From Candidatus Nealsonbacteria bacterium (GTDB taxonomy: Bacteria; Patescibacteriota; Minisyncoccia; Minisyncoccales; DAOVPY01), in contig DAOVPY010000003.1 in NCBI GenBank assembly GCA_030628945.1, forward strand, positions 1,297 to 65,296: a stretch of 64,000 nt of DNA. Direction: 5' to 3'. The notes under the pieces were generated by a model. That model saw only the letters and a program-made list of their open reading frames with translations, was not told the origin of the DNA and ran no database searches. Within the stretch, counting starts at the first letter, position 1. Every line of letters starts with the position of its first letter. A program made the translations under genes and the position numbers. Positions 2,533-56,239 of this stretch are shown in pieces.

Positions 2533-2565
2533 CTATCTCGCCCCGTTTCCAACGTGGCGAGATAG
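2533..2565. repeat. GC-rich palindromic hairpin (10-bp perfect stem)
   Basis: ctatctcgcc (2533-2542) pairs with ggcgagatag (2556-2565). Stem sequence is related to the hairpins at 2723 and 33989. Confidence 0.7.
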
Positions 2566-2590
2566 AACCTTCTAATTACTTCGTTCGGTC

Positions 2591-2618
2591 GAAATGCGAA
2601 AATGAATTTTCGCATTTC
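2591..2618. repeat. 13-bp perfect palindrome spanning the annotated ftsZ ATG
   Basis: gaaatgcgaaaat / attttcgcatttc; ATG 2602-2604 lies at the apex. Confidence 0.7.
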
Positions 2619-4323
2619 TCCCTCACTCGCAATTATGAAAAAAACAAAAAAAATAAAAAAAACAAAAAGGAAGAAAACCAAGAAATTTATCAACAAAGTT
2701 AAGAAGGTTCACCCTGTTAAATCCCTCTCGCCACGGAGGCGAAAGGGAATTTCGCGCACAGCGAAATTATTTAACAGGGCAAGAAAATCAGTAAAGAAAC
2801 CGAAGAAATCAAAAAAATTAAAGAAAATCGCGAATAAAAAAAAGCCGAACCTTGGCGTTGTTGGCAAAGAAAATGAAATCTATAAATCCAAAATCAGGAT
2901 TATTGGAATTGGCGGCGGCGGAAACACAATTATTAACGAGCTTGCCCTGAAAATAAAGAGGGTAAGTTTTGTCGCCGCAAACACCGACAGCCAGGCCCTT
3001 GGGCAGATGTCTTCCGGGGTAAAACGTTTCCAATTTGGCAGGGATTTGACCCAAGGTTTGGGATGCGGAATGAATCCTCATTTGGGGAGAACGGCCGCCT
3101 TGAAGGAAAGAGAAAGAATAGCCAAACTTTTTGAAGGAATTGATTTAGTTATTTTAGTCGCCTGTCTGGGCGGCGGAACCGGCTCCGGCGCGGCGCCGGT
3201 TTTTGCCGAGATTTCCCAGGAACTTAAGAAAAATTGTCTCGGTGTTTTTACTTTGCCCTTTGTTTTTGAGGGAGAAAAGAAATTTCAAATCGCCAGAAAT
3301 AGTTTAGAAAAAATTGCTCCCAGAATAAATACCCTTACCACTTTTCCCAATGAAAGAATTTTTCAAGTTATTGACCGCAAAACCCCGTTGAAAGACGCGT
3401 TTTCCTTTGTCAACAAAGCGTTGGCCGAGACCCTGGAGGGACTGGTGGAAATGATTTATTTGCCCGGATTAATCAATATTGATTTTGCGGACCTGAAAAT
3501 GATTTTAGGGGACTCTTCTCTTATTTCCAAGGAAGGGGTAAAAATAGCTTATCTTAACAGCGTGAAAGCCGCGGGCCCCAACCGGGCGGAGGAAGCGGTA
3601 AAGAAAGTTCTTTATAATCCCTTAAGCGAGTACAATATCGGGGGCGCCGGTTCATCTTATTCTTTTTCCCTGCGTTTGATTCCCGAGAAAATTTTGTTTA
3701 ATATTACGGCGCCAAGAGATTTGAAAATGAAAGAAGTGGAGCAGATTAGCAAAACCATTGTTGATTACAATAGACAGGCAAAAATAGTTTTTGGAGTTTC
3801 GTATGACAGATTTCCGCGCAATCAAGATAATCTCAGGATAACTTTGCTGGCGACCGGGAGGAAAACGGAAGAGGAGAAACCAAAGGAGAAACCAAAGGAG
3901 AAACCAAAGAAGAAACCAAAGAAGAAGCAAGTTCGCCCTGTTAAAGAAAAATCAAAACAACCGGTTCTTTTGCCGGCAAGAACTACCCGGCCACGCTTGA
4001 TTGTTTCTCCCAAAAAAAAGCTTCCTGTTCTGCAAAGCAAACCCGGACAAAAAATAAAAAAAATATCTAAACCAAGAAGGAAGAAATCGGTCCCTTCTTT
4101 TGGTTCTTCTTTGTCCGGCAACAATAAGCCGCGCGAGAAAGGAGCAAGGATTCAGCAAACTTCGGGCTTAAATCATAATTCCCTTTCTGCTTCTGACCAA
4201 AAAATCAGGAAGAACGCTTTGGATTTGAAAAAAGAAACAGAGCGGATAGAAAAAGAAATGTGGGCAGAGGAAGAGAAATGGAACATTCCGGCTTTTTTGC
4301 GGAAAAGAAATAAGTCCGATTAG
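2602..4323 (+). CDS. ftsZ: Cell division protein FtsZ with about 100-aa Lys-rich N-terminal extension and about 170-aa basic C-terminal linker
   Basis: Tubulin signature GGGTGSGAAPV, IGIGGGGNTIIN, ANTDSQAL. C-terminal peptide IPAFLRKR. No alternative start codon lies between aa 13 and the core. Confidence 0.9.
   Translation: MNFRISPSLAIMKKTKKIKKTKRKKTKKFINKVKKVHPVKSLSPRRRKGISRTAKLFNRARKSVKKPKKSKKLKKIANKKKPNLGVVGKENEIYKSKIRIIGIGGGGNTIINELALKIKRVSFVAANTDSQALGQMSSGVKRFQFGRDLTQGLGCGMNPHLGRTAALKERERIAKLFEGIDLVILVACLGGGTGSGAAPVFAEISQELKKNCLGVFTLPFVFEGEKKFQIARNSLEKIAPRINTLTTFPNERIFQVIDRKTPLKDAFSFVNKALAETLEGLVEMIYLPGLINIDFADLKMILGDSSLISKEGVKIAYLNSVKAAGPNRAEEAVKKVLYNPLSEYNIGGAGSSYSFSLRLIPEKILFNITAPRDLKMKEVEQISKTIVDYNRQAKIVFGVSYDRFPRNQDNLRITLLATGRKTEEEKPKEKPKEKPKKKPKKKQVRPVKEKSKQPVLLPARTTRPRLIVSPKKKLPVLQSKPGQKIKKISKPRRKKSVPSFGSSLSGNNKPREKGARIQQTSGLNHNSLSASDQKIRKNALDLKKETERIEKEMWAEEEKWNIPAFLRKRNKSD
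2712..2779. repeat. 68-nt three-way-junction palindromic element inside the ftsZ reading frame
   Basis: Outer stem ccctgttaaat/atttaacaggg (11 bp). Arm A ccctctcgcc-acgga-ggcgaaaggg. Arm B aatttcgc-gcaca-gcgaaatt. Confidence 0.7.
3874..3921 (+). repeat. In-frame 12-nt tandem repeat x4 (gagaaaccaaag) encoding (E/K)KPK repeats in the FtsZ linker
   Basis: Three perfect units and one unit with a single substitution, read directly from the sequence. Confidence 0.85.
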
Positions 4324-5764: not shown

Positions 5765-6705
5765 TGTCTCAAAATATCTACGATCTCATCATAATCGGCG
5801 CCGGACCCGCAGGCATTACTGCGGGTATTTACGCCGCGCGGGAAAAATTGAAAATATTGTTAATTACCAAGAGTTTTGGCGGGCAGATAGCGAGAAAAGC
5901 GGTGGCGATTGAAAATTATCCCGGATTCGCCGACATTAGCGGTTTGGAACTTATTCAGAAATTTACAAGCCATTTGAAAAAATTTAATCCTGACATAGAG
6001 CAAGGCGAAGTTCGCAAAATTAAAAAAAGCAAAGAGAATTTTATTATCGCGACAAAAGAAAAAAAACAATTTGAAGCAAGGGCGGTAATTATCACTTCGG
6101 GCGCGGACCCTCGTTCCATTGAGGTTCCGGGAGAGAAAGAATTTATCGGGCGAGGCGTTTCTTATTGCACTATTTGCGACGCGCCAATGTTTCAGGACAA
6201 AACCGTGGCAGTAATTGGCGGCGGCAACGCCGGATTTGAAGCTGGTTTGGCTTTAAGCAATTACGCGCGAAAAATTTATATTTTAGAGCATGCTTCAAAG
6301 ATTAAAGCCGACGCCATAAATCAGGAGAAAGCCCGGGCTTTGGGGAAAATTGAAATAATAACCTCGGTTCTTCTCAAAAAAATTCAGGGGGATGACTTCG
6401 TGAATTCAATAGTTTATCAGGACCGCGGTTTTGGGAAGACAAAAACTCTCAATTGCGCGGGCGTTTTTATTGAAATCGGCAGCCATCCCGCAACTTCTTT
6501 TGTCAAAGATTTGGTTGATTTTAACAAGAAAGACGAGATTAAAATAAATCCCGGAACTTGCGAAACCAAAACCTCGGGTCTTTTTGCCGCGGGCGATGTT
6601 ACAGATACAGCGATAAAACAAATTGTGGCGGCGGCAGGCGAAGGCGCAAAAGCAGCCATTTTTGCCGGCAAGTATTTGTCCCAACAAATCAGGGCCATTG
6701 CTTAA
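5764..6705 (+). CDS. trxB: Thioredoxin-disulfide reductase
   Basis: FAD motif IIIGAGPAGITAG, redox CxxC (CTICD), NADPH motif VIGGGNAG, and C-terminal GDV..T...Q.V.AAGEG. The start is taken at the ATG overlapping the upstream stop. Confidence 0.9.
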   Translation: MSQNIYDLIIIGAGPAGITAGIYAAREKLKILLITKSFGGQIARKAVAIENYPGFADISGLELIQKFTSHLKKFNPDIEQGEVRKIKKSKENFIIATKEKKQFEARAVIITSGADPRSIEVPGEKEFIGRGVSYCTICDAPMFQDKTVAVIGGGNAGFEAGLALSNYARKIYILEHASKIKADAINQEKARALGKIEIITSVLLKKIQGDDFVNSIVYQDRGFGKTKTLNCAGVFIEIGSHPATSFVKDLVDFNKKDEIKINPGTCETKTSGLFAAGDVTDTAIKQIVAAAGEGAKAAIFAGKYLSQQIRAIA

Positions 6706-6720
6706 CCGAGTTAAGCAATG
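6696..6720 (+). promoter_or_regulatory. Intercistronic hairpin pairing the trxB stop region with the eno start codon
   Basis: cattgcttaa (contains TAA 6703-6705) pairs with ttaagcaatg (contains ATG 6718-6720). The 17-nt core gcttaaccgagttaagc recurs at 23937-23953. Confidence 0.6.
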
Positions 6721-8064
6721 CCCAAAATTCGCATAAAAATGAAAAATTCAAAAATCAAATCAATAAAAGCGCGGGAGATTTTGGACTCGCGCGGCAATCC
6801 CACAGTGGAAGCAGAGGTTGAAACCGATGCCGGGGTTTTTTTTGCTTCGGTTCCTTCAGGCGCTTCAACGGGAAAACGAGAGGCAACAGAATTAAGAGAC
6901 AAAGGCAAGAGATATCAAGGGAAAGGCGTTTTGAAAGCGGTAAGGAATGTAAACAAAATTATTGGACCAAAATTAAAAGGAAAAGACGCGGCTAAACAAA
7001 AAGAGATAGACGAGTTGCTCATTAAATTGGACGGGACGAAAAATAAATCGCGGTTGGGCGCCAACGCGATTTTAGCCGTTTCAATTGCCGCGTGCCGTAC
7101 GAGCGCCGCAGCAAAAAATATTCCCTTGTATCAGCATATTAAAGAAGTTTATCAGGAAGCCGGGCGAGAAGTTAGACGAGGACAGGCCTCGGTAAAACTG
7201 CCATTCCCTTGTTTTAATGTTATTAACGGCGGCGCGCACGCCGGCAATGACCTGGATTTCCAGGAATTTATGATTGCGCCGCAATTCAAAAAGTTTTCAA
7301 AAAACCTGCAAGCCGCCTCCGAGATTTATCATACCTTAAAACAGATTTTACAAAAGAAATTTGGAAAATCAGCAATAAATATCGGCGATGAAGGCGGTTT
7401 TGCGCCCCCAATTAGATTTCCGGAACAAGCGTTAGATTTAATTATGGAAGCGATTGGAAAGGCGGGTTATGCTAACAGGGTAAAAATCGTTCTGGATGTT
7501 GCCGCGTCGCAATTTTACTTGCCCCCCCACCAAAAATTTGGTAGTGGGGGTTCCAACGGAAAATATAAAACAAAATTCAAAGTTTTTAGCCAAAAAGGAC
7601 TTGTGAATTATTATTTAGATTTAATCAAAAAATATCCCATTATTGCTTTGGAAGATCCTTTTAGCGAAGACGATTGGAAAGGGTGGAAGGAATTAAGTTC
7701 AAAGTTCAAAGTTCAAAGTTCAAAATTATTGATAATTGGGGACGACCTTTTATGTACTAATCCGAAAAGGATAAGAGAGGCGCATGAGAAAAATGCCTGC
7801 AACGGGCTCTTATTGAAGCCAAATCAAATCGGAACAGTAACCGAAGCAATAGAAGCAACAAAGATTGCTCGGTCATTTGGCTGGAAAATAATGGTTTCTC
7901 ACCGGAGCGGCGAAACAAATGATGATTTTATCGCTGATTTGGCAGTCGGAATTTCAGCTGATTTTATAAAAGCGGGCGCCCCTGCCCGCGGCGAGCGATT
8001 AGCGAAGTATAATCGCCTGTTGAGAATTGAAGAAGAGATGCGCTCGGCAAATGAAAATTTTTAG
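6718..8064 (+). CDS. eno: Enolase (phosphopyruvate hydratase)
   Basis: AREILDSRGNPTVEAEV, SGETNDDFIADLAV, KAGAPARGERLAKYNRLLRIEEE. The true start may be the downstream Met (MKNSKIK). Confidence 0.95.
   Translation: MPKIRIKMKNSKIKSIKAREILDSRGNPTVEAEVETDAGVFFASVPSGASTGKREATELRDKGKRYQGKGVLKAVRNVNKIIGPKLKGKDAAKQKEIDELLIKLDGTKNKSRLGANAILAVSIAACRTSAAAKNIPLYQHIKEVYQEAGREVRRGQASVKLPFPCFNVINGGAHAGNDLDFQEFMIAPQFKKFSKNLQAASEIYHTLKQILQKKFGKSAINIGDEGGFAPPIRFPEQALDLIMEAIGKAGYANRVKIVLDVAASQFYLPPHQKFGSGGSNGKYKTKFKVFSQKGLVNYYLDLIKKYPIIALEDPFSEDDWKGWKELSSKFKVQSSKLLIIGDDLLCTNPKRIREAHEKNACNGLLLKPNQIGTVTEAIEATKIARSFGWKIMVSHRSGETNDDFIADLAVGISADFIKAGAPARGERLAKYNRLLRIEEEMRSANENF
7524..7550. repeat. GC-rich hairpin inside eno (in-frame insertion-like segment)
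   Basis: cccccac...gtggggg flank caaaaatttgg. The region encodes LPPHQKFGSGGS, which is absent from the E. coli enolase sequence as I recall it. Confidence 0.55.
7695..7723 (+). repeat. Heptanucleotide tandem repeat x4 (agttcaa) inside eno
   Basis: ttaAGTTCAAAGTTCAAAGTTCAAAGTTCAAaatt, translated SSKFKVQSSK. Confidence 0.85.
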
Positions 8065-8150: not shown

Positions 8151-9359
8151 ATGAAAATTTTATTAGTTATTATAGATGGCCTTGGAGACAGGCCCATTGC
8201 GAAGTTGGGTGATAGGACGCCGCTGGACGCGGCGAAAACACCGAATTTGGATTATATGGCAAAGCAAGGAGTTTGCGGTTTAATAACTCCTTTTTTGTTT
8301 TCGCAGGAGAAAGAACCAACTTCAGAAGGCGCTCACATCGCCTTGTTCGGCTATCAAAATTATTTTTTAGGCAGGGGACCCTATGAAGCTGTTGGAGCGG
8401 GGATGAAAATGAACGCCGGAGACGTTGCCTTGCGGGTGAATTTTGCCACGGTAGATAAGAATTTTAAAATTATTGACCGGCGAGCCGGAAGAATAGAAAA
8501 AACCCAACCATTGATAAAAGCATTGTCAAAAATAAAGATTAAAGGGGTGAAATTTTTAATCAAAAGATCTTTTGGCCACCGCGCCGTTTTGCTTTTGAAG
8601 TGTTTAAGGTTGAACCTTAAACAGCTGTCATCGGGGATTTCAGACAACGATTCTCATAAAAATAAAGTAAAAATTAAAAAAATTATTCCCTTGAATCAAT
8701 CAAGAGAAGCGAAATTCACTGCTGATGTTTTGAGTGAATATTTAGCCAGAGTCCATCATATATTAAAAGACCATTTTTTGAACAGAAAAAGGGAAAAACA
8801 AGGGCTTTTGCCGGCTAATTATCTTTTAGTCAGGGGCGCCGGCAAGTTCAAAAAAACTCCAAGTTTCAAAGAGAGATATAATTTAAGCGCTGCTTGCGTT
8901 GCCGGCGGCGGATTATACAAGGGCGTGGCAAAAATTTTAGGAATGGATTTGATTAAAGTTAAAGGCGCGACCGGTATGGCAGACACCAACCTCAAAGCAA
9001 AATTTCGTGTGGCGAAAAACGCGTTAAGAAAATATAACTTTGTGTTTCTTCATATTAAAGCGACAGACACTTTTGCCCACGACAATGATTTTATCGGTAA
9101 GAAAAAATTTATAGAAAAAATTGACAAAAATATAAAATCTATTTTATGTCTGAAAAATGCTCTTATCGTAATTACGGCAGACCATTCCACTTGCTGTAAT
9201 ATGAAAGCTCATTGCCTTGAACCAATACCGATCTTGATTTTTGGCGATGGAAAAGACAATGTTTCTCAATTTTCCGAGCGTACTTGCGCAAAAGGCAATT
9301 TCAAAAAAATAAAACAAACAGATTTAATGCCAAAAATTTTAAAACTGGCAAAAATTTGA
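8151..9359 (+). CDS. apgM: 2,3-bisphosphoglycerate-independent phosphoglycerate mutase, archaeal type
   Basis: MKILLVIIDGLGDRPI N-terminus, HIKATDTFAHD, ITADHSTC; about 400 aa. Confidence 0.85.
   Translation: MKILLVIIDGLGDRPIAKLGDRTPLDAAKTPNLDYMAKQGVCGLITPFLFSQEKEPTSEGAHIALFGYQNYFLGRGPYEAVGAGMKMNAGDVALRVNFATVDKNFKIIDRRAGRIEKTQPLIKALSKIKIKGVKFLIKRSFGHRAVLLLKCLRLNLKQLSSGISDNDSHKNKVKIKKIIPLNQSREAKFTADVLSEYLARVHHILKDHFLNRKREKQGLLPANYLLVRGAGKFKKTPSFKERYNLSAACVAGGGLYKGVAKILGMDLIKVKGATGMADTNLKAKFRVAKNALRKYNFVFLHIKATDTFAHDNDFIGKKKFIEKIDKNIKSILCLKNALIVITADHSTCCNMKAHCLEPIPILIFGDGKDNVSQFSERTCAKGNFKKIKQTDLMPKILKLAKI
8602..8622. repeat. 9-bp perfect hairpin inside apgM
   Basis: gtttaaggt-tga-accttaaac, encoding the CLRLNLK segment within the otherwise conserved GHRAVLLLK...LSSGISDND block. 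Confidence 0.45.
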
Positions 9360-13975: not shown

Positions 13976-15919
13976 ATGAGAAAAAAACTAATTAAAAAAG
14001 GAAATTTGTATTTTCCTTCCAAGGAATTCGAAAAGAGGGCGTGGGTGAATGATAAAAAGATTTACAAAGAAGCGGCAAAAAACCCGATTAAATTTTGGGA
14101 AAATTTGGCAAAACAACTTTTTTGGTTTACCCCGTTAAATAGTGCCAAAGGCAATTTAACAGGGGAACAAAAATGGAAGAAAACCTTTGTCCACAAGCCG
14201 CCGCGTTTTCAATGGTTTGTTAACGGGAAAATAAACATTACTTCAAATATCTTTGAGCGCAATTCTTTGGGCTGGGAAAGTATTAAAAATAAGCCGGCTT
14301 TAATTTGGGAGCCGGAACCGATACAGGAAAAATTCAGGACATTTACCTATGAAAAACTTTTCAGAGAAGTCAATCAATTTGCTAACGCTCTGAAAAAATT
14401 GGGAGTGAAAAAAGGAGATAGAATAGGAATTTATCTGCCAATGATTCCAGAGGCAGTGATATCAATGCTTGCCTGCGCCAGGATTGGAGCTGTTCACTCT
14501 GTTGTTTTTTCCGCTTTTTCTTCAACCGCGCTCAAAATTCGGCTTCAAGATACAGGCGCAAAAATTTTAATTACCGCAGACGGTTATTGGCGCCGGGGAA
14601 AAATTATTGATTTGAAGAAAAACGCGGATGACGGGATTAAGGGAACAAAAGTGAAAAAAGTTATTGTGGCAAAGCGAGCCGGGAATAAAGTAAAAATGGA
14701 AAAAGCAAGAGATTTTTGGTGGGAAGATTTAGCTAAAAATCAACCTGATTTTTGCGAACCAGAAATAATGGATTCCGAAGACACATTATTTATTCTTTAC
14801 ACAAGCGGTTCCACGGGCAAGCCAAAGGGCACGGTTCACGTCTGCGGCGGTTATACTGTTCAGGCAAAGTTTACCGGAAAATGGATATTTGACTGGCGCG
14901 ATGAAGATATTTTTTGGTCTACCGCTGATTTGGGCTGGATTACCGGCCATACATATAGCTGTTATTCACCCTTGCTTAATGGCGCGACTTTTCTTATTTA
15001 CGAGGGCGGGATAGATTGGCCCGAGCCGCGCAGGTGGGCGAAAATTATTGAGAAATATAAAGTAAGCGTCTTTTATACCGCGCCCACGGCCGTAAGGATG
15101 TTTGCCAAATACGGGACTGGTCTTCTTAAGGGAATTAATTTTGAGAGTTTGCGGTTATTAGGCTCGGTGGGCGAGCCGATAGATGAATCAACATGGCAAT
15201 GGTATTTCAAAAATGTTGGACAAGAAAGATGCCCTGTCGTGGATACCTGGTGGCAGACCGAAACAGGCGGGATTTTAATAACCTCTTTGCCAGGCATTGG
15301 CCCTTTTAAGCCGGCTTTTACCGGATTGCCTTTTCCGGGAATAAAATTTGATATTAAAAATGGAAATTTAGTTCTTCTTCCTCCTTTTTGTCCCGGACTT
15401 TTGCGGGGAATTTACAAAAATCCCAAAAAATATTTAGATACTTATTGGAAAAAATATGGCAAGAAGATTTACTTTACCAGCGACGCTGCCTATAAAGATA
15501 AAAATAATTTAATTCGGATTATCGGCCGAGTGGATGATGTGATAAAAACAGCCGGACATCGTTTAAGCACCGGCGAATTGGAAGACGCTGTTTCAAAACT
15601 AAAAATTATCAGCGAAAGCGCCGCAATAGGAATTTTTGATGAAATAAAAGGAGAAGCGCCGGTGATTTTTATTGTCTTGAAAAAAGCTGGAAACATTGAA
15701 GAGGTTAAAAAAGAAGTTATAATTCAGCTCAGGAAAGAAATCGGGCCCATTGCCAAGCCAAAGCAGATTTATTTGGTTGATGATTTGCCGAAAACCCGCT
15801 CAGGCAAAATTATGCGTAGAATTCTAAAAAAATTATTCACTGGCGAGGAATTAGGCGATTTGTCCACATTAGCCAACCCGAAAAGCGTAGAGAGAATCCA
15901 AAAAATAATAAAAAATTGA
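13976..15919 (+). CDS. acs: Acetyl-CoA synthetase (AMP-forming)
   Basis: YTSGSTGKPKG, WWQTETGG, and C-terminal PKTRSGKIMRR. The ATG at 13976 is preferred over the TTG at 13958. Confidence 0.9.
   Translation: MRKKLIKKGNLYFPSKEFEKRAWVNDKKIYKEAAKNPIKFWENLAKQLFWFTPLNSAKGNLTGEQKWKKTFVHKPPRFQWFVNGKINITSNIFERNSLGWESIKNKPALIWEPEPIQEKFRTFTYEKLFREVNQFANALKKLGVKKGDRIGIYLPMIPEAVISMLACARIGAVHSVVFSAFSSTALKIRLQDTGAKILITADGYWRRGKIIDLKKNADDGIKGTKVKKVIVAKRAGNKVKMEKARDFWWEDLAKNQPDFCEPEIMDSEDTLFILYTSGSTGKPKGTVHVCGGYTVQAKFTGKWIFDWRDEDIFWSTADLGWITGHTYSCYSPLLNGATFLIYEGGIDWPEPRRWAKIIEKYKVSVFYTAPTAVRMFAKYGTGLLKGINFESLRLLGSVGEPIDESTWQWYFKNVGQERCPVVDTWWQTETGGILITSLPGIGPFKPAFTGLPFPGIKFDIKNGNLVLLPPFCPGLLRGIYKNPKKYLDTYWKKYGKKIYFTSDAAYKDKNNLIRIIGRVDDVIKTAGHRLSTGELEDAVSKLKIISESAAIGIFDEIKGEAPVIFIVLKKAGNIEEVKKEVIIQLRKEIGPIAKPKQIYLVDDLPKTRSGKIMRRILKKLFTGEELGDLSTLANPKSVERIQKIIKN
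14131..14166. repeat. 36-nt (12-codon) palindromic element in frame inside acs
   Basis: The outer stem ccccgttaaat...atttaac(a)gggg is nearly identical to the ftsZ element stem; inner hairpin tgcc-aaa-ggca. Encodes PLNSAKGNLTGE. Confidence 0.65.
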
Positions 15920-15982: not shown

Positions 15983-18355
15983 ATGAAAAAATCGCAAAAA
16001 AATATACTTTGGTATAAGGAAATCTCAAAAGATGACGTGGCATTGGTAGGGGGTAAGAACGCTTCGCTTGGGGAGATGTTTTCAAAGCTGACTAAAAAGG
16101 GGATTAATATCCCTGACGGGTTTGTTTTGACTTCCCATGCTTACTGGTATTTTTTGCGGGAGAATAAAATAGATAAAAAACTGAAAGAAATTTTTAGCAA
16201 ATTTAATCCTAATAGCATAAAATCGCTCAAAAAAACCGGAAATGCGGCGCGGCAATTGATTTTAAAAGCCGAATTTCCGCAAGACCTGAAAAAAGAAATT
16301 TTGAGAGATTATCAAAAGTTGTCGCAGAAATATAATCAGAAAAATACCGACGTCGCGGTAAGAAGTTCGGCAACAGCTGAAGACCTTCCAAGCGCGTCTT
16401 TCGCGGGACAGCACGAGACCTACCTTAATGTTTACGGAGAAGAAGATTTATTAAAATCCATCAAAAATTGTATTGCTTCTTTATTTACCGACAGGGCCAT
16501 AGCTTATCGCGAAGAAAAAAGATTTAATCATCTGAAAATCGCTTTGTCAGTGGGAATTCAAAAAATGGTTCGGTCTGATTTGGCTTCGGCGGGAATAATA
16601 TTTACTCTTGACACTGAAACAGGCTTTCAAAATGTGGTTTTAATCAATTCTACATGGGGAATTGGCGAAATGATTGTCAAAGGAAAAATTACGCCGGACG
16701 AATTTTATGTTTTCAAACCAACCCTGAAACAAGGATATAAATCCATAATTTCCAAAAATTTAGGAAGAAAAACAAATAAATACATCTATGGCAAAGACAG
16801 CGGCTTGAAAGAGATTAAAGTTTCGTTAAAAAATCAGGCAGAATTTTCTGTTACTGACAAGGAAATTCTAATTCTGGCAAATTGGGCAGCGCAGATTGAG
16901 CAACATTATAAGACGCCACAGGATATTGAATGGGCAAAGGATGGAAAAACCAAGCAATTATTTATTGTCCAGGCAAGGCCGGAAACAGTTCACGCGCCAA
17001 AAGAAATTAAAACCTATCAAGAATACCAGGTTCAAACTAAACAAAAACCAATCCTGGAAGGGATTGCCATCGGGAATAAAATCGGCCAGGGAAAAGTTCG
17101 TATTATCAAAGACATTTCTAAAATTTCAGAATTTAAGAAAGGCGAAATTTTGGTAACAAAAATTACTGATCCTGACTGGGTGCCGATAATGCGGCTCGCC
17201 TCGGCTATTATTACTAATGAAGGCGGAAAAACCTGCCATTCAGCAATAGTAGCCAGAGAGTTAGGGATACCTTGTATTGTGGGGACAAAAAACGCAACTA
17301 AAATTTTAAGAAATAAACAGGAGATAACAGTTGATTGCGCGCAAGGGTTAAACGGCAAGGTTTATCAGGGTAAAATTCCTTTTAGAATTAAAAAATACAA
17401 TTTGAAGAAAATTCCGAAGTTGAAAACAAAGATAATGATTAATATCGCCGCGCCGGATATTGCTTTTAAGACCTCGTTTTTACCGAATGACGGCGTTGGA
17501 TTGGCAAGGGAGGAATTTATTATTGCGGAAAAAATCAGAATTCATCCATTAGCCCTATATCATTATGAAAAGTTAAAAATAAAATCAATAATTAAGCAGA
17601 TAGACGAGATAACAGTTGGGTATCAAGATAAAAAGCAATATTTTGTGGATAAATTAGCCGAAGGCGTTGGCATAATTGCGGCCGCGTTTTATCCCAAAGA
17701 GGTGATTGTGCGATTTTCCGATTTCAAAACCAATGAATACAAAAATCTTATTGGCGGCGAGTTATTTGAAGGCGAGGAATCAAATCCAATGCTTGGTTTC
17801 AGAGGCGCCTGTCGTTATGTTGACAAAGAATTTCAGCCGGCTTTTAAAATGGAGTGCCAGGCGATAAAAAAGGCGCGCGAGGTTTTTGGCTTAAAAAATA
17901 TTACGATGGAAATTCCTTTTTGCCGCACAGTAGAGGGAGGGAAGGAAGTACTTGAATTAATGAAGCGATATGGATTAGAAAAAGGCAAAGATGGCTTGAA
18001 AGTCATTGTGATGTGCGAAATTCCTTCAAATGTGATTTTAGCGGATGAATTTTTGAAAATTTTTGACGGGATGTCTATCGGTTCCAATGATCTTACACAG
18101 TTGGTTTTGGGAGTGGACAGAGACAACGCCAAGATTGCTTGTATTGGCGACGAAAGAAATGAAGCGGTAAAAAAGATGCTCAGAAGGGTTATTAAAACCT
18201 GTCAAGAAAAGAAAAAAGGCTGCGGAATTTGCGGACAGGGCCCGAGCGATTATCCGGAATTCGCGGAATTTTTGGTCAAAGAGGGGATAGAGAGCATTTC
18301 CTTAAACCCTGATACTATAATTAAAACAATTTTAAACCTGTCAAAAATCAAATAA
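15983..18355 (+). CDS. ppsA: Phosphoenolpyruvate synthase (pyruvate, water dikinase)
   Basis: GGKNASLGEM, phosphohistidine motif GGKTCHSAIVAREL, and a C-terminal PEP-utilising TIM-barrel domain. Confidence 0.9.
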   Translation: MKKSQKNILWYKEISKDDVALVGGKNASLGEMFSKLTKKGINIPDGFVLTSHAYWYFLRENKIDKKLKEIFSKFNPNSIKSLKKTGNAARQLILKAEFPQDLKKEILRDYQKLSQKYNQKNTDVAVRSSATAEDLPSASFAGQHETYLNVYGEEDLLKSIKNCIASLFTDRAIAYREEKRFNHLKIALSVGIQKMVRSDLASAGIIFTLDTETGFQNVVLINSTWGIGEMIVKGKITPDEFYVFKPTLKQGYKSIISKNLGRKTNKYIYGKDSGLKEIKVSLKNQAEFSVTDKEILILANWAAQIEQHYKTPQDIEWAKDGKTKQLFIVQARPETVHAPKEIKTYQEYQVQTKQKPILEGIAIGNKIGQGKVRIIKDISKISEFKKGEILVTKITDPDWVPIMRLASAIITNEGGKTCHSAIVARELGIPCIVGTKNATKILRNKQEITVDCAQGLNGKVYQGKIPFRIKKYNLKKIPKLKTKIMINIAAPDIAFKTSFLPNDGVGLAREEFIIAEKIRIHPLALYHYEKLKIKSIIKQIDEITVGYQDKKQYFVDKLAEGVGIIAAAFYPKEVIVRFSDFKTNEYKNLIGGELFEGEESNPMLGFRGACRYVDKEFQPAFKMECQAIKKAREVFGLKNITMEIPFCRTVEGGKEVLELMKRYGLEKGKDGLKVIVMCEIPSNVILADEFLKIFDGMSIGSNDLTQLVLGVDRDNAKIACIGDERNEAVKKMLRRVIKTCQEKKKGCGICGQGPSDYPEFAEFLVKEGIESISLNPDTIIKTILNLSKIK

Positions 18356-23926: not shown

Positions 23927-23963
23927 TTGGGCTTGTGCTTAACCGAGTTAAGCACAAGCCCAA
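23927..23963. repeat. 16-bp perfect palindrome between argF and rpmE sharing a 17-nt core with the 6696 hairpin
   Basis: ttgggcttgtgcttaa-ccgag-ttaagcacaagcccaa. Confidence 0.75.
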
Positions 23964-28980: not shown

Positions 28981-29071
28981 AGGGAGTGGGGGCGTGTAAT
29001 TCCCGAATTCCGAGCCCCGCTGAAAGCGGGGCGAGGGAATGCCTTCGGGCAACTTTCCCTCCCTGCCCACA
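28981..29071 (+). repeat. Structured spacer ending in a degenerate copy of the tRNA-Tyr 3' part
   Basis: 29041-29071 (gccttcggg...tccctccctgcccaca) repeats 28901-28933 except in the T-loop. Internal hairpins are ccccgc-tgaaa-gcgggg and gcc-ttcg-ggc, plus the pairing aattccc/gggaat. Confidence 0.6.
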
Positions 29072-29079
29072 ATAATTTC

Positions 29080-31290: not shown

Positions 31291-34029
31291 ATGAAGGAAG
31301 AAATTTTACCCCCCGCCACTTTTGGCGTTTCGCCAAAAGTGGCGGGGGGCGCGTGGCACAATTTGGAATGGGAAGAGGTGGTGAAGAAATTCGGCTCAAA
31401 CGTTGAAACGGGTTTAACCGAGAAAGAAGTGAAAATCCGCAGAAGAAAATTTGGAGCCAATGAATTGCCCGCGGAAAAACCTTTTTCTAAAACAAGGATA
31501 TTTTTGGAGCAAATCAGAAGCCCCCTGGTTTATATTTTAATAGTTGCCGGAATCGTCACTTTTCTTTTCAAAGAATACACCGACTGTATGGTTATTTTCG
31601 GCGCTGTTTTTTTGAATACCATTGTTGGTTATTTTCAGGAAAATAAGGCATCAAACGCTCTTAGACAGCTCAAAAAAATAGTCAGGCACAGCGCTCGGGT
31701 AGTCAGAGATGGAGGCGAAAGCATAAAGGATTCTTCTGACTTGGTAATCGGAGATATTTTTATTTTAAATCCCGGAGACAGGGTTCCGGCAGACGGACGG
31801 CTGATAGAAGTTCACAATTTAAAAATCAATGAAATGTGCCTTACAGGGGAGTGGCTGCCGGCAACAAAGCGCCTGGATATTTTGCCTGAAAAGACCTCTC
31901 TGGCCGACAGAGACAATATGGTTTATATGGGTTCTATTGTTGAGGACGGAAAGGCCGCGGCAATAGCCGTTGGGACCGGAATTCAAACCGAGATAGGAAG
32001 AGTCGCTGAAATGGTGAAGGAAACCAAAGAAGAAAAGACCTCTCTTCAAAAAAAATTAGCCCGTTTTAGCAAAATTATCGGGATGATTATTGCCGTTGTT
32101 TGCGTTGGTATTTTTATTGAAGGAGTAATAACAGGCGTGGAGGTTATAGAAATGTTTACCATTGCCGTTGCCGTTGCGGTCGCCGCTATTCCAGAGGGAC
32201 TGCCAGTGGCTATGACCGTAATTTTGGCTCTGGGAATGACCAGGATTTTGAAAAGAAAGGGATTAGTGAGGAAATTAGTCGCCGCGGAAACTCTTGGCTC
32301 TACTTCAATAATTTGCACCGACAAGACCGCTACTCTGACCCAGGGGAAAATGAGAGTGAGCGAGATTTTTACTCCCGGGCAAATTTTTAACAAGAAGGAT
32401 ATGGACAAAGGAAGCGCCTCCTTAACAATGGCTCTAAAAATTGCCGCGCTTTGCAATGAAGCGTTTATTGAAAATCCCGAAGCAATGATGGAGAAATGGA
32501 TTATTCGGGGGAGACCCACTGACAAGGCGTTGCTTTCGGCAAGCATAGAGGCCGGTATTAATAAAAAAGAATTAGAGCAACAGCTCTTTGAAATTGATGA
32601 AGTTCCCTTTGATTCAATTCATAAATACATTGCCAAACTCTATCAAACAAAAAATGATTCCCGGGTTTTATATGTCTGCGGCGCCCCCGAGAAAATTTTG
32701 GGTCTGTCTGATTATTTTGAAATAGACAACAAAATAGAAGAATTAAGCGTTGGCAAATTAAAACAAATGGAATTAAAATTAGATGATTTAACTGGAAAAG
32801 GGATGAGGGTAGTGGCAGTGGGGTACAAGGAAGCGAAAAGCGAAAAGCGAAAAGCGAAAAGATTAGAGGAAGAAGTAAAAAATCTGGTTTTTGCGGGATT
32901 TATTGCGTTGAAAGACCCGTTGAGGAAAGAAGTCAAAGGAGCGATTAAGATTTGCCAACAAGCGGGAATGAAGCCGATTATTGTGACAGGCGACCATAAA
33001 TTGACAGCCAGGGCAGTAGCCGAGGAATTGGGCTTAAAAATAAAAGAAGAGCATATTTTAGAAGGAGAAGAATTAGACCAATTTTCAGACGAGGAATTTG
33101 ACCGGCGGGTTAAAGATATTCAAATTTACGCCAGAGTGGAACCAAAACATAAAATGAGAATTATCAGCGCCTGGCAAAGGAGGGGAGAGGTGGTTGCAAT
33201 GACCGGCGATGGAATCAATGACGCGCCGGCGCTGAAAAAAGCGGATATTGGCGTAGCTTTGGGTTCCGGCTCCGAAGTGGCAAAAGAGGTCTCCGACCTG
33301 ATACTTTTGCCGGATTCTTTTGATATTATTGTTGCGGCTATAGAAGAAGGAAGGGCGATTATTGACAACATCAGGAAGGTGATTACCTATCTGCTCTCTG
33401 ATAGTTTTACCGAAGTAATTTTAATTGGAGTAAGCCTGATGCTGGGTTTGCCTCTGCCGATTGTAGCGGTTCAGGTTTTGTGGGTGAATCTTATTGAAGA
33501 CGGCCCGCTCGGTCTCTGTCTTGCCTTTGAACCGAAAGAAAAAGATTTAATGCGCAGAAAACCCGAGAGCAGCGATATTCCTCTTTTGACCAAAGAGATG
33601 AAAGCGTTGATTTTTATCATTGGATTAATAACCGACATTTTACTTTTGGCCCTGTTTTTTTGGCTTTTGAGATATTCTAATTATGAAATTCCACATATTC
33701 AATCAATAATTTTTGCCGGATTAACCATTGATTCTCTTTTTTATGTTTTCTCCTGTAAAAGTTTGCGTAGAAATCTCTGGCATATAAATCCCTTTTCCAA
33801 TAAATTTTTAATTCTTGCCTGGGCGCTCGGGATAATCGCTTTGCTTGCGGCATTATATGTTCCTGTTCTTCAGACCCTTTTAAAAACCGTGCCCCTGAGT
33901 TTATTTGACTGGCAGCTTGTTTTGGGTTTGGGCTTATTGAATATACTATTGATTGAAGCCACCAAATGGTATTTTATCACGAAATTGCCCCTCACCCTTT
34001 CGCCTGAAGGCGAAAGGGTGAGGGGTTAG
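31291..34029 (+). CDS. P-type ATPase, Ca2+-transporting (P2 type)
   Basis: TGE motif, phosphorylation site CTDKTATLT (Ala replaces the usual Gly of DKTGT), TGDGINDAPALKKADIG, 10-TM layout. The ATG at 31291 is preferred over the upstream extension. Confidence 0.9.
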   Translation: MKEEILPPATFGVSPKVAGGAWHNLEWEEVVKKFGSNVETGLTEKEVKIRRRKFGANELPAEKPFSKTRIFLEQIRSPLVYILIVAGIVTFLFKEYTDCMVIFGAVFLNTIVGYFQENKASNALRQLKKIVRHSARVVRDGGESIKDSSDLVIGDIFILNPGDRVPADGRLIEVHNLKINEMCLTGEWLPATKRLDILPEKTSLADRDNMVYMGSIVEDGKAAAIAVGTGIQTEIGRVAEMVKETKEEKTSLQKKLARFSKIIGMIIAVVCVGIFIEGVITGVEVIEMFTIAVAVAVAAIPEGLPVAMTVILALGMTRILKRKGLVRKLVAAETLGSTSIICTDKTATLTQGKMRVSEIFTPGQIFNKKDMDKGSASLTMALKIAALCNEAFIENPEAMMEKWIIRGRPTDKALLSASIEAGINKKELEQQLFEIDEVPFDSIHKYIAKLYQTKNDSRVLYVCGAPEKILGLSDYFEIDNKIEELSVGKLKQMELKLDDLTGKGMRVVAVGYKEAKSEKRKAKRLEEEVKNLVFAGFIALKDPLRKEVKGAIKICQQAGMKPIIVTGDHKLTARAVAEELGLKIKEEHILEGEELDQFSDEEFDRRVKDIQIYARVEPKHKMRIISAWQRRGEVVAMTGDGINDAPALKKADIGVALGSGSEVAKEVSDLILLPDSFDIIVAAIEEGRAIIDNIRKVITYLLSDSFTEVILIGVSLMLGLPLPIVAVQVLWVNLIEDGPLGLCLAFEPKEKDLMRRKPESSDIPLLTKEMKALIFIIGLITDILLLALFFWLLRYSNYEIPHIQSIIFAGLTIDSLFYVFSCKSLRRNLWHINPFSNKFLILAWALGIIALLAALYVPVLQTLLKTVPLSLFDWQLVLGLGLLNILLIEATKWYFITKLPLTLSPEGERVRG
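31309..31349. repeat. 19-bp perfect hairpin in frame near the ATPase N-terminus
   Basis: ccccccgccacttttggcg-ttt-cgccaaaagtggcgggggg, encoding LPPATFGVSPKVAGGA. Confidence 0.75.
33989..34026. repeat. 17-bp perfect hairpin forming the last 13 codons of the ATPase ORF
   Basis: cccctcaccctttcgcc-tgaa-ggcgaaagggtgagggg, followed immediately by the TAG stop. Confidence 0.75.
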
Positions 34030-34988: not shown

Positions 34989-35008
34989 TTGTTTTTTAGC
35001 TTAAATTG

Positions 35009-35017
35009 TGGTATAAT
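35009..35017 (+). promoter_or_regulatory. Extended -10 promoter (TGgTATAAT), 9 nt upstream of the first gene of the Glu/Lys-rich operon
   Basis: ttgTGgTATAATaaaaaaattATG. Confidence 0.55.
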
Positions 35018-35026
35018 AAAAAAATT

Positions 35027-35608
35027 ATGGCAGAGAGATACGAGTTTAAAACAAAATTTGAAAGGGAACGCGAGAATCAGGGAAAAGAAGCGGAAAATAA
35101 ACAAGAAAAAGAAAGCCAGTTTTCTCTTTGGGAAGAGCCGCTCAGCGAAGAGGAAATAAGCGAATTTTTTCATAAAATAAAAATTATTCGGGAGGAGGAA
35201 AATCCGGAAGGAAAAACACAAGAAATTAAAAAATTGCTTCCTCATCTTTTGGGCAAAAGAATAGAGGAACAATTAAAAAAAGAAGGAAAAAAAATAATAA
35301 AAATTGAAGACGAAGAAGGCGAAGAAATACTTAAGTCAGGGGGATATGAATGGTTTACAGAGGAGAACGAGGAAAAGCAGGGCTTAGAAATTCGGCGGGC
35401 AGTTGTTGAGAAAGAAGAGGGAAAGATGAAAAAAATGAGAACTAATACTATGATTTTTTCAGGAAAGGATATTGAAGCAATGACTGATAAATTTTTGACA
35501 GAAATAAAAGAGCTAAAAAAAGAAGATTTATGGAGAATAGAGGAGGATAAAAGAAAAAGCAGGGAACAAGCCAGAAAACCAAAGATTTTCCGCCGTCCCG
35601 AGAATTGA
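35027..35608 (+). CDS. Glu/Lys-rich hypothetical protein P1
   Basis: 193 aa, highly charged, no TM or signal peptide. The purine-rich coding strand gives an antisense shadow ORF. Confidence 0.55.
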   Translation: MAERYEFKTKFERERENQGKEAENKQEKESQFSLWEEPLSEEEISEFFHKIKIIREEENPEGKTQEIKKLLPHLLGKRIEEQLKKEGKKIIKIEDEEGEEILKSGGYEWFTEENEEKQGLEIRRAVVEKEEGKMKKMRTNTMIFSGKDIEAMTDKFLTEIKELKKEDLWRIEEDKRKSREQARKPKIFRRPEN

Positions 35609-35637
35609 ATCACAATTTATTAACAAACAAAAAAGTT

Positions 35638-36039
35638 ATGGAAGAAATTAATAAAAAAATTGAAAAAGAGACAAGAGAGGAATATAAAGAAAAACCTTCT
35701 TCCGCTGAAGCCCCGCTTTCAGCGGGGGAAGAGAAAGAGGGGATTTTAGAAAAAAGAGAATTTGCAGAAGAAGAAATAAAGAAACGGGAAGAATTGGAAA
35801 AAGAGATTGAAAAAATTAAATTATCTCCGCAAATAAAAGCGCAAGCGCAGAAGCAGGCAGACGAAATAAAGAAGCAGTCAGCCAAAGGAAAAATTCAGCA
35901 TCTCTTGGATTTGGCCCAGGCGCAGGGAATTTCTTATGCAGTGGAAGTGGCGCGAAAAATAGATGACCCGTATCTGCTGGATTTATTCCACGACACTCTG
36001 GCTAAAGAGGGCTTGTTCAAAAAATTTATGGAGAAGTAA
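35638..36039 (+). CDS. Glu/Lys-rich hypothetical protein P2 with a small globular C-terminal region
   Basis: The ATG at 35638 is preferred over the TTG at 35605. C-terminal sequence KIQHLLDLAQAQGISYAVEVARKIDDPYLLDLFHDTLAKEGLF. Confidence 0.55.
   Translation: MEEINKKIEKETREEYKEKPSSAEAPLSAGEEKEGILEKREFAEEEIKKREELEKEIEKIKLSPQIKAQAQKQADEIKKQSAKGKIQHLLDLAQAQGISYAVEVARKIDDPYLLDLFHDTLAKEGLFKKFMEK
35711..35727. repeat. Hairpin ccccgctttcagcgggg inside P2, the exact reverse complement of the tRNA-spacer hairpin at 29015-29031
   Basis: 17-nt identity in inverted orientation; a half-copy tccgctgaag lies just upstream. Confidence 0.8.
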
Positions 36040-36080
36040 AGATTGGTTTGTAAATAAATTTAAAATTAAAAATTAAAATT

Positions 36081-36689
36081 ATGTCAAAATCAATGGAAAA
36101 AATAAAGATTACAACAAAAGAAATAGAAGAAAAAAAAATAGAGAAAGGGGCATTAAAACAAGAGGTAGGGGAAGAAATAATCTCAGAAGAAGATATTGAG
36201 AAGCGAGAGGCTGGAATAAAAGCGCAAGACGAAGAGGAACTCGTGAAACAAAGAGAAAAAGTTAAAGAAATAACAGGGGAGAGAGAAAAAGTTAAACCCG
36301 AGGAGTTAATGCCGGAATTAGGTAAAACAATAATAGAAACAGCAGAGAAAGAAAGAAAGGAGGTAGAAAAGCTTAAAGAAAAAGTAGAGAAAATTAAAGA
36401 AGTTTTAGAAAAAGCAAAATGGGTAAGTACTATTGAGGAATTAGATCAGTTAGAAAAAGAAGCAGGAGAAGTAACTAAAGAAGGGGAGAGATTAATCAGT
36501 GGTATCGGCATCTTACATGCATTTCGAGAGAGATTAATGAGAATTTTGGGAGGTGGAGAAATAGAGAAAGAAAAAATAATAGGAGAAGAATCAGAAAGAT
36601 TAAAAAAAGAAGCAGAAGTATCAATGAAATCTCGAGGAGAATTAAAAGAATTTTTCGAAAAACAAAGAAGAAGAATCGAAAAAGAATAA
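36081..36689 (+). CDS. Glu/Lys-rich coiled-coil hypothetical protein P3
   Basis: 202 aa and extremely charged. Same strand, closely spaced with its neighbours. Confidence 0.55.
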   Translation: MSKSMEKIKITTKEIEEKKIEKGALKQEVGEEIISEEDIEKREAGIKAQDEEELVKQREKVKEITGEREKVKPEELMPELGKTIIETAEKERKEVEKLKEKVEKIKEVLEKAKWVSTIEELDQLEKEAGEVTKEGERLISGIGILHAFRERLMRILGGGEIEKEKIIGEESERLKKEAEVSMKSRGELKEFFEKQRRRIEKE

Positions 36690-36704
36690 TTAAGATTATC
36701 AATT

Positions 36705-37166: not shown

Positions 37167-37192
37167 TCTGACGAAAAATAAAAAATAAGATT

Positions 37193-39619: not shown

Positions 39620-39657
39620 AAAGGTCGAAAATAAATAATTTTTAATTTAGAAAAATT

Positions 39658-40830: not shown

Positions 40831-40885
40831 AAAAATATAGTTCTGTCAAAAAGAGTAAAACCTGCTAAAGGGTAAGGGTCTTTTT

Positions 40886-56166: not shown

Positions 56167-56178
56167 CATTTCAAAAAT

Positions 56179-56206: not shown

Positions 56207-56239
56207 ATTTCCTTATTTTATACATAGAGATTCAAGCGC

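Follow-up and report, generated by a model that had tools for sequence, protein, structure and literature searches.

A 76-nt DNA palindrome that is read in frame near the start of the cell division gene ftsZ of a Candidatus Nealsonbacteria bacterium belongs to a very small, apparently undescribed repeat family that is scattered through many bacterial phyla and sometimes sits inside conserved genes without breaking them. We analyzed a 64,000-nt stretch of contig DAOVPY010000003.1 (the window), in which an earlier note had described three palindromic structures at the 5' end of ftsZ. All three are present where the note had placed them, and its observation is confirmed. The note had also proposed that these structures and hairpins in further genes form one family of small palindromic elements that can reside in frame inside essential genes, as Rickettsia palindromic elements (RPEs) do. 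This interpretation is partly supported, since it holds for the three-way junction in ftsZ and for a second copy in acs, but not for the other hairpins that were pooled with them. We consider it most likely (probability about 0.6) that the element is one copy of an ultra-small, non-autonomous MITE- or RPE-like mobile palindrome.

The whole element spans positions 2708-2783 (+ strand) and consists of the tips TTCA and CAAG around a 68-nt closed three-way junction (2712-2779). The left terminal arm CCCTGTTAAAT (2712-2722), the family-defining 11-mer, pairs with the right terminal arm ATTTAACAGGG (2769-2779). In between lie the internal hairpins H1 (CCCTCTCGCC-ACGGA-GGCGAAAGGG, 2723-2747), which is longer than the usual 13-nt H1, and H2 (AATTTCGC-GCACA-GCGAAATT, 2748-2768), which has the family-typical AATT...AATT frame and whose exact sequence is unique within the window. 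RNAfold gave -36.3 kcal/mol for 2712-2779 compared to -14.3 ± 2.6 for 200 shuffled sequences (z = -8.4, 0 of 200 as stable), and z = -9.0 for the whole region 2520-2800. The element is translated as (V)HPVKSLSPRRRKGISRTAKLFNRA(R) in the frame that runs into the FtsZ core. Homologues begin with MKKTKK and have variable lysine-rich extensions, which places the probable start of ftsZ (2635-4323, + strand) at the ATG at 2635 and not at the ATG at 2602, at the apex of the palindrome 2591-2618, which the note had called the annotated ATG. No in-frame ATG, GTG or TTG is present between 2635 and the core, and the element must be read through for FtsZ to be made. The 82-residue N-terminal extension is 45% Lys+Arg and holds the element at residues 25-49.

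Searching with the stem sequences and building a covariance model had been suggested in advance as a test of the family, and further copies were indeed found. An exact-pattern scan for the outer stem, CCCTGTTAAAT...ATTTAACAGGG, hit more than 119 loci from about 90 assemblies, covering Patescibacteria, Desulfobacterota, WOR-3, Omnitrophota, Cloacimonadota and others, so that the element is not specific to CPR-like genomes. One of the fetched loci (numbered with the prefix L), L087, derives from the Nealsonbacteria chromosome CP179888.1, while L009 turned out to be an inverted-duplication contig and was excluded. The fetched loci plus the window contain 133 copies, nearly all with the same plan: (T)TYA, the 11-bp stem, one or two internal hairpins of free but compensating sequence, the 11-bp stem again, and TRA(A), which together give a terminal inverted repeat of 14-15 bp. 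On a single strand, the element folds into a hairpin or a closed three-way junction. Cores are 29-78 nt long. The left 11-mer is identical in more than 130 copies from other genomes, although the scan pattern itself required this. All loci were selected for exact termini, and conservation of the termini is therefore partly an ascertainment effect. However, the four flanking positions, which were not required by the pattern, also show a consensus (T-T-Y-R / Y-R-A-A). All 5 pairs of H1 and 4 of 8 pairs of H2 show changes on both sides, with a covariation score of 0.292 compared to 0.108 in shuffles (0 of 500 reach it) and ≤0.085 when partners are slid. The inner part of H2 (TT/AATT) is invariant in an alignment of 21 copies, although its rows were picked partly on the AATT ends. 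The covariance model (R1) accepts only two members in the window, the ftsZ copy (59.3 bits, E = 1.2e-10, + strand) and the acs copy (28 bits, E = 8e-4).

The acs copy (14126-14168, + strand) is the one-hairpin form, TTTA CCCCGTTAAAT AG-TGCC-AAA-GGCA ATTTAACAGGG GAAC, and encodes (T)PLNSAKGNLTGE. The note's observation that the outer stem recurs in acs is correct (14130-14164; the gapped pattern matches 3 times, 0.00 expected), and a near-identical interior occurs in locus L010. Comparison with orthologues, likewise named beforehand as a test, showed an exact 13-codon insertion relative to the solved Acs 8rpk. The phosphoglycerate mutase (PGM) of the closest relative (L001) carries +60 nt (20 codons) exactly at the element, while the window's orthologue is empty there (at about 9026). 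The ftsZ copy is lacking in the closest FtsZ relative as well as in the 120 best homologues. In L059, a full element resides inside the H1 loop of another one, and several assemblies carry multiple copies, for example 8 copies on 6 contigs of JAHJSK01. About 90% of the copies are intergenic, so in-frame residence is the tolerated exception and not the rule. About 12 of 133 copies sit in long ORFs, and all of them keep the frame, with a core length of 2 mod 3 in 11 of the 12, in line with selection against disruptive insertions. Their peptides are HPVK...FNRV or TLLN...LTG, and the hosts include KsgA, a glycosyltransferase, HolB, a DsbD_2 protein, MalK and MotA/ExbB.

Flanking direct repeats of ≥7 nt are enriched (17 observed, 1.3 expected with a same-locus control). 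However, their offsets vary, some belong to larger repeat units, and the PGM, acs and ftsZ copies have none, which leaves undecided whether target-site duplication accompanies insertion. The two best-resolved insertions, in PGM and acs, have no target-site duplication and a net gain of exactly the core + 4 nt, which does not fit a uniform DDE cut-and-paste model. Many copies within one genome or clade share longer flanks and sit inside larger repeat units in Desulfobacterales, WOR-3 and JAHJSK01, and some of the copy number may therefore come from duplication of larger units. Flank palindromy beyond the 4-nt tips is not enriched, arguing against targeting to hairpin loops; it is seen only in one composite repeat (L004, L030, L063) and in the nested copy in L059. 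Orientation relative to neighboring genes is unbiased (12 same and 13 opposite upstream, 11 and 14 downstream). An all-against-all BLAST of 841 neighboring ORFs revealed no linked gene, the largest cluster covering 7 loci and representing an ABC ATPase. No transposase or recombinase was detected among 30 ORFs of the window or among the neighbors checked, which are housekeeping genes. A related autonomous insertion sequence with the same termini was not found in 0.85 Mb of fetched loci or in the window, but since whole genomes were not searched, the existence of such a partner is left undecided, and the resemblance to the terminal motif of IS6 (GG tip, cTGTt, caaa, 8-bp repeats; PMC7986276) is weak. 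Phage carriage is not supported, with only 2 hits in 2.9 million viral contigs.

Our data show that copies are dispersed within genomes, differ between related genomes and can nest inside one another, while movement in trans by an enzyme recognizing the conserved stem is an inference, and that enzyme has not been identified. In this view, most surviving insertions are intergenic, and a minority landed in tolerant parts of genes with a net length divisible by three (core + 4 nt) and in one of the two stop-free frames, where they are simply translated. The ftsZ copy adds about 24 residues to the lysine-rich N-terminal extension, which we infer from its composition to be disordered, and no role for the peptide is implied. 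Translation is inferred and has not been observed directly.

An alternative that we regard as unlikely is that the element is a structure-specific recombination or transposition substrate and not a classical MITE, and that the folded single strand (a 15-bp stem plus variable arms) is recognized by a tyrosine recombinase or HUH-type enzyme, as for integron attC sites, IS200/IS605 ends or REPINs, and inserts without target duplication at a TT|AR-like site. The conserved stem with a variable but always paired interior follows such attC-like logic, and the PGM and acs insertions, the nesting in a hairpin loop, the GTTRRRY and RYYYAAC motifs in the stem and a covarying variant, GTTAGAT/ATCTAAC, are in agreement with this. 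However, the motif order GTT...AAC is the reverse of that in attC sites (AAC...GTT), the stems are perfect without extrahelical bases or unpaired spacer, no integrase, Y1 transposase or other gene recurs nearby, and flanking direct repeats of 7-10 nt are not expected for these mechanisms. Even less likely appears a host-useful cis element acting as RNA or DNA, such as a protein-binding stem, an mRNA-stabilizing or processing hairpin or a bidirectional terminator, kept by selection and with the intragenic copies as by-products. Strong covariation, the location of many copies within tens of nucleotides of gene starts or ends, and identical stems across phyla, which could reflect a conserved binding partner, would support this. 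Moreover, at one apparently orthologous intergenic site three genomes (L016, L066, L096) all keep the element with compensated differences, which hints at retention or function and not just selfish spread. In contrast, the lack of orientation bias, of any associated gene family, of a T-run after the stem and of an Rfam family, as well as the variable presence between close relatives inside coding sequence, argue against it. The frequent TTCA...TAAA tips, giving a C-A mismatch on one strand and G-T on the other, show no link to gene direction, and the ascertainment of exact termini inflates apparent conservation.

Local formation of the palindromes by template switching or fold-back synthesis, with a coincidental resemblance of the ftsZ and acs sites, is very improbable. 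The window does contain many unrelated, lineage-specific perfect hairpins inside genes (enolase, N- and C-terminal ends of the ATPase), and hairpin-templated repair rather than selection could produce the compensatory changes. However, the same 11-15-nt termini and architecture occur in more than 130 copies, and in PGM and acs both arms are new relative to the empty site, so neither arm is copied from local sequence. For the three-way junction this origin is largely refuted, whereas it remains open for the non-family hairpins. More speculative, and doubtful at present, is that the family represents a new class of structure-defined mobile element, with a roughly 15-bp universal stem carrying interchangeable hairpin arms and moved as a folded single strand by an unidentified trans-acting enzyme working across phyla. 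In streamlined CPR genomes it would act as a recurrent source of new peptide segments inside essential proteins; alternatively, it has been domesticated as a conserved protein-binding module.

Like RPEs (Ogata et al. 2000, as summarized in PMC10969869), the family is multi-copy palindromic DNA without a gene of its own, found between genes and in frame inside unrelated housekeeping genes, where it adds a peptide segment without destroying the protein, and the mobilizing enzyme is unknown in both cases. RPEs are about 100-150 bp, confined to Rickettsia, and roughly half lie in ORFs, while the elements described here are 35-76 nt (a few reach about 150 nt), occur in Patescibacteria and other phyla, and are defined by a short terminal stem with a free, covarying interior and not by a conserved full-length sequence or peptide; they are not members of the Rickettsia families by host and size, although sequences were not compared with RPE consensus sequences. 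With bacterial MITEs such as ERIC, Correia, RUP and Nezha (PMC10969869, PMC2229807, PMC3184786) the family shares terminal inverted repeats, small size, lack of coding capacity, dispersed copies, flanking direct repeats at some copies and occasional intragenic in-frame copies. It is much smaller than typical MITEs, no cognate insertion sequence was identified, the best-resolved insertions lack target duplications, and near-identical termini across phyla are unusual. Integron attC sites also have short inverted core motifs of GTTRRRY/RYYYAAC type at the ends of a stem, and a central part of variable length and sequence that can be branched, and recognition would be of a folded strand, but our elements show the reverse motif order on either strand, are mostly solitary and not arranged in cassette arrays next to an integrase, and also occur inside ORFs. 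REP/REPIN elements are likewise short, non-autonomous, hairpin-forming palindromic repeats in which structure matters and doublets make longer hairpins, but they are extragenic, species-specific, carry a 5' GTAG and are linked to a RAYT (Y1 transposase) gene, none of which is seen here, as there is no GTAG at the ends, copies occur inside ORFs, and no Y1 transposase turned up among the ORFs scanned. For palindrome-associated elements derived from IS200/IS605, which have subterminal hairpins, no terminal inverted repeat and no target duplication and insert 3' of a fixed tetranucleotide, the comparison gives no decision: insertions without target duplication next to TTYR fit, but the long terminal inverted repeat and the two dissimilar, freely varying hairpins do not, and no TnpA was found. 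Mitochondrial GC clusters and double-hairpin elements of yeast and Allomyces are small G+C-rich multi-hairpin mobile modules in A+T-richer genomes that can lie in frame in protein genes; they are organellar and have different sequences, and no relationship was tested here. Resemblances to XerD/dif, parS and boxA (a shared TGTTAAAT or UUUAACA) were dismissed since arrangement and copy number do not fit.

Neither Rfam nor the searchable literature yielded a description of the family. At gathering threshold the window contains only four tRNAs, and region 2500-2900 at E ≤ 10 gave only chance-level hits to unrelated eukaryotic RNA models. Literature searches covered the arm sequences, CPR palindromic elements or MITEs and IS6 MITEs, and the only paper holding both arm sequences is a coincidental primer and promoter sequence in a Picrophilus plasmid study. 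CPR/Patescibacteria genomes are regarded as streamlined and poor in mobile DNA, and a repeat family small enough to escape gene callers and repeat finders, yet present in many lineages and phyla, changes that picture. It explains odd, non-conserved peptide islands (HPVK...FNRV, TLLN...LTG) in otherwise conserved proteins and flags a source of annotation and alignment artefacts. It also provides a second system, independent of Rickettsia, in which selfish palindromes are tolerated inside essential genes, with natural filled and empty alleles that make the effect on proteins testable. Identical 15-nt ends across phyla point to an unknown mobilizing or binding protein.

The remaining hairpins that the note had pooled with the three-way junction, including those in the ATPase, enolase and cysS genes and the TGAAA-loop hairpins, were rejected as members by the covariance model and by k-mer searches, and hairpins (i) and (ii), the ATPase and enolase hairpins and the TGAAA-loop hairpins do not share the family's termini. 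Hairpin (i) (2533-2542 and 2556-2565), a perfect 10-bp stem with a 13-nt loop that starts 15 nt after the stop codon of the upstream MscS-like gene, is a singleton (12 bits, E = 2.3) without relatives in the fetched loci. No T-run follows it, and a terminator scan called no + strand terminator at 2533-2565, 2591-2618 or 2712-2779. Structure (ii) (2591-2618) is a perfect palindrome of 12-13 bp with a TGAA loop, which ends 17 nt before the probable start codon, and this start would put it in the 5' leader; a hairpin in a similar position lies upstream of ftsZ in locus L002 (114-142). The claimed recurrence of arm A (H1) at 33989 is a shared 10-mer, GGCGAAAGGG, whose count in the window is not above chance (7 observed, 6.2 expected at ≤1 mismatch), and the model does not accept that hairpin (17.8 bits, E = 0.13). 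Of the sites listed in the note for the TGAAA-type apex, 28950 shares only the loop, while CCGCTGAAAGCGG is a genuinely repeated hairpin of a different sequence family, with 5 sites at ≤1 mismatch (21237, 25906, 29017, 35713 and 51317) compared to 0.02 expected.

The region between the MscS-like gene (1997-2518) and the FtsZ core contains the three structures reported in the earlier note, whose observation is confirmed. Hairpin (i) at 2533-2565 has a perfect 10-bp stem and starts 15 nt after the upstream stop codon, while palindrome (ii) at 2591-2618 has a 12-bp stem closed by TGAA. Element (iii) at 2712-2779 folds into a closed three-way junction without unpaired junction bases, with a fold energy of -36.3 kcal/mol compared to -14.3 +/- 2.6 for shuffled sequences (z = -8.4, 0 of 200). 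The window as a whole is rich in perfect hairpins, with 33 stems of >=9 bp against 2-7 in shuffles and 46 G+C-rich stems of >=7 bp against 4-8. Most are intergenic.

FtsZ homologues place the organism in Parcubacteria, close to Nealsonbacteria; the best hit is 72% identical, and the window's own protein was not among the hits. Homologues carry a lysine-rich N-terminal extension of variable length, and since several of the closest begin MKKTKK or MKKIKK, the start codon is most likely ATG 2635 and not the ATG at 2602, which lies at the apex of palindrome (ii). No ATG, GTG or TTG is present in frame between 2635 and the GIGGGG motif at residue 91. To make FtsZ, the ribosome must read through element (iii), which would give HPVKSLSPRRRKGISRTAKLFNRA at residues 25-49 of an extension that is 45% Lys+Arg. 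An alignment of FtsZ orthologues had been suggested beforehand to score presence or absence of the segment, and neither the closest relative (the syntenic locus L001) nor any of the 120 best homologues has it. The L001 comparison also revealed a 21-nt (7-codon) insertion in the window's FtsZ core at ~3511-3535, roughly SLISKEG, between GD and KIAYLNS, which was not examined for structure. In the ftsZ of another Parcubacteria (P0005, locus L003), two related short hairpins at 2775-2810 and 3054-3085, CCCGCC-N14-GGCGGG and CCCTCC-N14-GGAGGG, code KPAFAKSTAGK and KPSFAKAMEGR in the lysine-rich N-terminal extension; their stems differ by a compensated change, and they represent another in-frame hairpin type in the same protein region. 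In a relative with 52% identity (L002, 114-142), a perfect 12-bp hairpin with a TGAAG loop lies about 20 nt upstream of the ftsZ start. Its position and loop are similar to those of palindrome (ii), and it may be a positionally conserved leader hairpin.

The outer stem of element (iii) recurs in acs. A scan of one genome per species of bacteria and archaea with CCCTGTTAAAT-N(3-51)-ATTTAACRGGG returned at least 119 loci from about 90 assemblies. These comprise the Patescibacteria lineages Doudna-, Nomura-, Niyogi-, Kuenen-, Morani-, Nealson-, Berkel- and Kaiserbacteria, Paceibacterota and Saccharibacteria, as well as Desulfobacterota, WOR-3, Omnitrophota, Cloacimonadota, Zixibacteria, Calditrichota and others. 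We roughly estimate about ten chance matches in this collection, and a few hits do look like chance, for example those from Clostridium and Domibacillus, which lack the flanking consensus. One locus, L009, is a perfect inverted duplication of itself over the whole contig, with element copies at the mirror positions 679 and 6201, and is probably an assembly artefact; in L040 (5347-5447) a run of N lies directly next to an element copy. Nearly all of the copies other than these chance-like hits share one plan: four flanking positions T-T-Y-R, the 11-nt arm, either one 4-bp hairpin (35-nt cores, as in acs) or two hairpins stacked directly on the stem, the complementary arm, and Y-R-A-A. In the Patescibacteria type, the first hairpin (H1) usually has 5 bp and a 3-nt loop, and the second (H2) begins and ends with AATT. 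The ftsZ copy fits this plan, with an unusually long H1.

To examine whether the structure is maintained, 21 oriented copies were aligned without reference to structure. All five pairs of H1 show changes on both sides, with up to four pair types per position, as do four of the eight pairs of H2. The covariation score is 0.292, compared to 0.108 for shuffled partners (0 of 500 reach the observed value) and at most 0.085 for slid partners, and overall 91% of cells are paired. Since every locus was selected for exact termini, conservation of the termini themselves is partly due to ascertainment, but the flanking T-T-Y-R and the hairpin pairing were not selected for. At what appears to be one orthologous intergenic site in three genomes (loci L016, L066 and L096), the arms differ by compensated substitutions, while the surrounding DNA is only about 60-70% identical.

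A covariance model (R1), a check likewise proposed in advance, was built from this alignment. In the window it finds the ftsZ copy (59.3 bits, E = 1e-10) and the acs copy (28 bits, E = 8e-4), and nothing else above noise. Hairpins (i) and (ii), the enolase hairpin (7522-7550), the ATPase hairpins (31309-31349 and 33988-34025) and the CCGCTGAAAGCGG hairpins are not members. The interpretation of the earlier note as a family of small palindromic elements is right for element (iii) and the acs copy, but it pools unrelated hairpins with them. The 10-mer shared between arm A (the H1 of element (iii)) and the ATPase hairpin, which had been taken as a recurrence, is not above chance.

Some of the excluded hairpins show features of their own. 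The enolase gene (6718-8064) contains at 7520-7552 a G+C-rich hairpin, CCCCCCCACCAAAAATTTGGTAGTGGGGG, that codes LPPHQKFGSGG and is an exact 33-nt (11-codon) insertion relative to the enolase of L001; it is not a member of the CCCTGTTAAAT family. The enolase of L001 (15909-17057) is called as two pieces of 289 and 50 residues with about 100 central residues missing, and around 16335-16385 it has an extra pair of short G+C-rich hairpins (CCGAGG...CCTCGG and AGACCCGACGTCGGGTCT) where the window has one. In the P-type ATPase (31291-34029), perfect 19-bp and 17-bp G+C-rich hairpins at 31309-31349 and 33988-34025 code residues 7-20 (PPATFGVSPKVAGG) and the last 13 residues (PLTLSPEGERVRG), respectively. 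Both segments are absent from the L001 orthologue, so lineage-specific hairpin-coding insertions occur beyond the family studied here. The hairpin CCGCTGAAAGCGG is a separate small repeat family with five sites at <=1 mismatch (21237, 25906, 29017, 35713 and 51317) against 0.02 expected, of which four are intergenic and one is inside ORF 35605-36039. One of these hairpins is contained in a G+C-rich, strongly folding segment (28983-29075, -38.8 kcal/mol) between tRNA-Tyr and tRNA-Thr, which ends in the same ~15 nt (CCCTCCCTGCCCACA) as the 3' end of tRNA-Tyr. Neither ARAGORN nor Rfam calls this segment a tRNA, and it may be a disrupted tRNA copy. Two further pairs of intergenic hairpins, 6696-6720 / 23927-23963 and 56175-56210 / 61126-61150, share their core sequences (GCTTAACCGAGTTAAGC and AAAGCAGGGGATAGCCCCTGCTTT, respectively) and look like repeated terminator-like hairpins.

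Several observations are evidence that the element moves and that in-frame copies are insertions. The phosphoglycerate mutase (PGM) gene of L001 carries a two-hairpin copy coding CPVKCRSAAISPKAKLFNRV, whereas the closely similar orthologue of the window (8151-9359) goes straight from ...AKNAL to RKYNF.... The difference is exactly 60 nt, which is core 56 + 4, with no duplicated target. The acs copy aligns to the solved acetyl-CoA synthetase structure 8rpk as an exact 13-residue gap, i.e. 39 nt or core 35 + 4. In other genomes, copies lie in frame in KsgA/RsmA, a family-1 glycosyltransferase, DNA polymerase III delta', a DsbD_2 membrane protein, a MalK-type ATPase and MotA/ExbB, reading as HPVK...(F/Q)FNR(V/A) or TLLN...LTG peptides. 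Those are the two stop-free frames of the arms, while the third frame reads TAA in both arms. In locus L059 a complete element sits in the H1 loop of another. Flanking direct repeats of >=7 nt occur in 17 of 114 copies against 1.3 expected from same-locus controls, but their offsets vary and some belong to larger repeat units, which leaves undecided whether they represent target duplications. About 12 of 133 copies are inside long ORFs. Assuming that these genomes are largely coding, this implies strong removal of intragenic insertions, or avoidance of genes, and the intragenic copies that remain are frame-preserving.

The two-hairpin form has a defined polarity, with H1 before H2, and for these copies the orientation relative to the neighbouring genes is even (12 same and 13 opposite upstream, 11 and 14 downstream). 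No gene family recurs next to the element, no T-run follows it, and no Rfam model matches. While we cannot exclude a symmetric function, such as protein binding to the stem, these findings argue for a DNA-level element rather than an orientation-dependent RNA. Our data demonstrate that the family exists with a conserved architecture and compensated hairpins, that there is insertion polymorphism, that elements can nest, and that in-frame copies exist in conserved genes. In contrast, mobilisation in trans by an enzyme that recognises the 15-bp stem, translation of the intragenic copies, and tolerance of the ftsZ copy due to its location in a variable, presumably disordered extension are inferences.

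No transposase, integrase or Y1 enzyme was found among 30 ORFs of the window or among the neighbours of copies that were checked, and phage carriage is negligible. The chemistry of insertion was not established, as the PGM and acs insertions have no TSD, yet direct repeats are enriched elsewhere. Hairpin-templated repair could produce the compensated changes without selection. Part of the copy number may be carried along by larger units, since in Desulfobacterales, WOR-3 and one Patescibacteria MAG the element sits inside larger repeat units. In the Desulfobacterota loci L020, L022, L024, L033, L045, L047, L076, L100, L103 and L105, the 48-nt form of the element sits at the centre of a conserved repeat unit of about 200 nt with further inverted repeats, such as ACTTCGTAAAAAGTCCA...GGACTTTTTACGAA and GCGTAC-N5-GTACGC.

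Small palindromic mobile elements that can be translated are already known, and functionally the nearest parallel is the Rickettsia palindromic elements (PMC10969869), selfish palindromes tolerated in frame in housekeeping genes. Formally, the element satisfies most MITE criteria except for a demonstrated autonomous partner and a regular TSD. It differs from both in its size (35-76 nt), its definition by a short stem with a free, covarying interior, and its spread across phyla. The mechanism of mobilisation was not identified and could turn out to be new. We found no description of the element in open-access text. It resembles integron attC sites in logic and even in motif content (GTTRRRY/RYYYAAC), but the motif order is reversed and there are no cassettes or integrases, and it is not a REP/RAYT system. 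Elsewhere in the window, at 35006-41935, a run of Glu/Lys-rich ORFs with no Pfam match flanks a VirD4/TraG-like type IV coupling ATPase (37193-39619) and is followed by an RmuC-family gene (40886-41935), which may be a remnant of a conjugative or DNA-transfer module.
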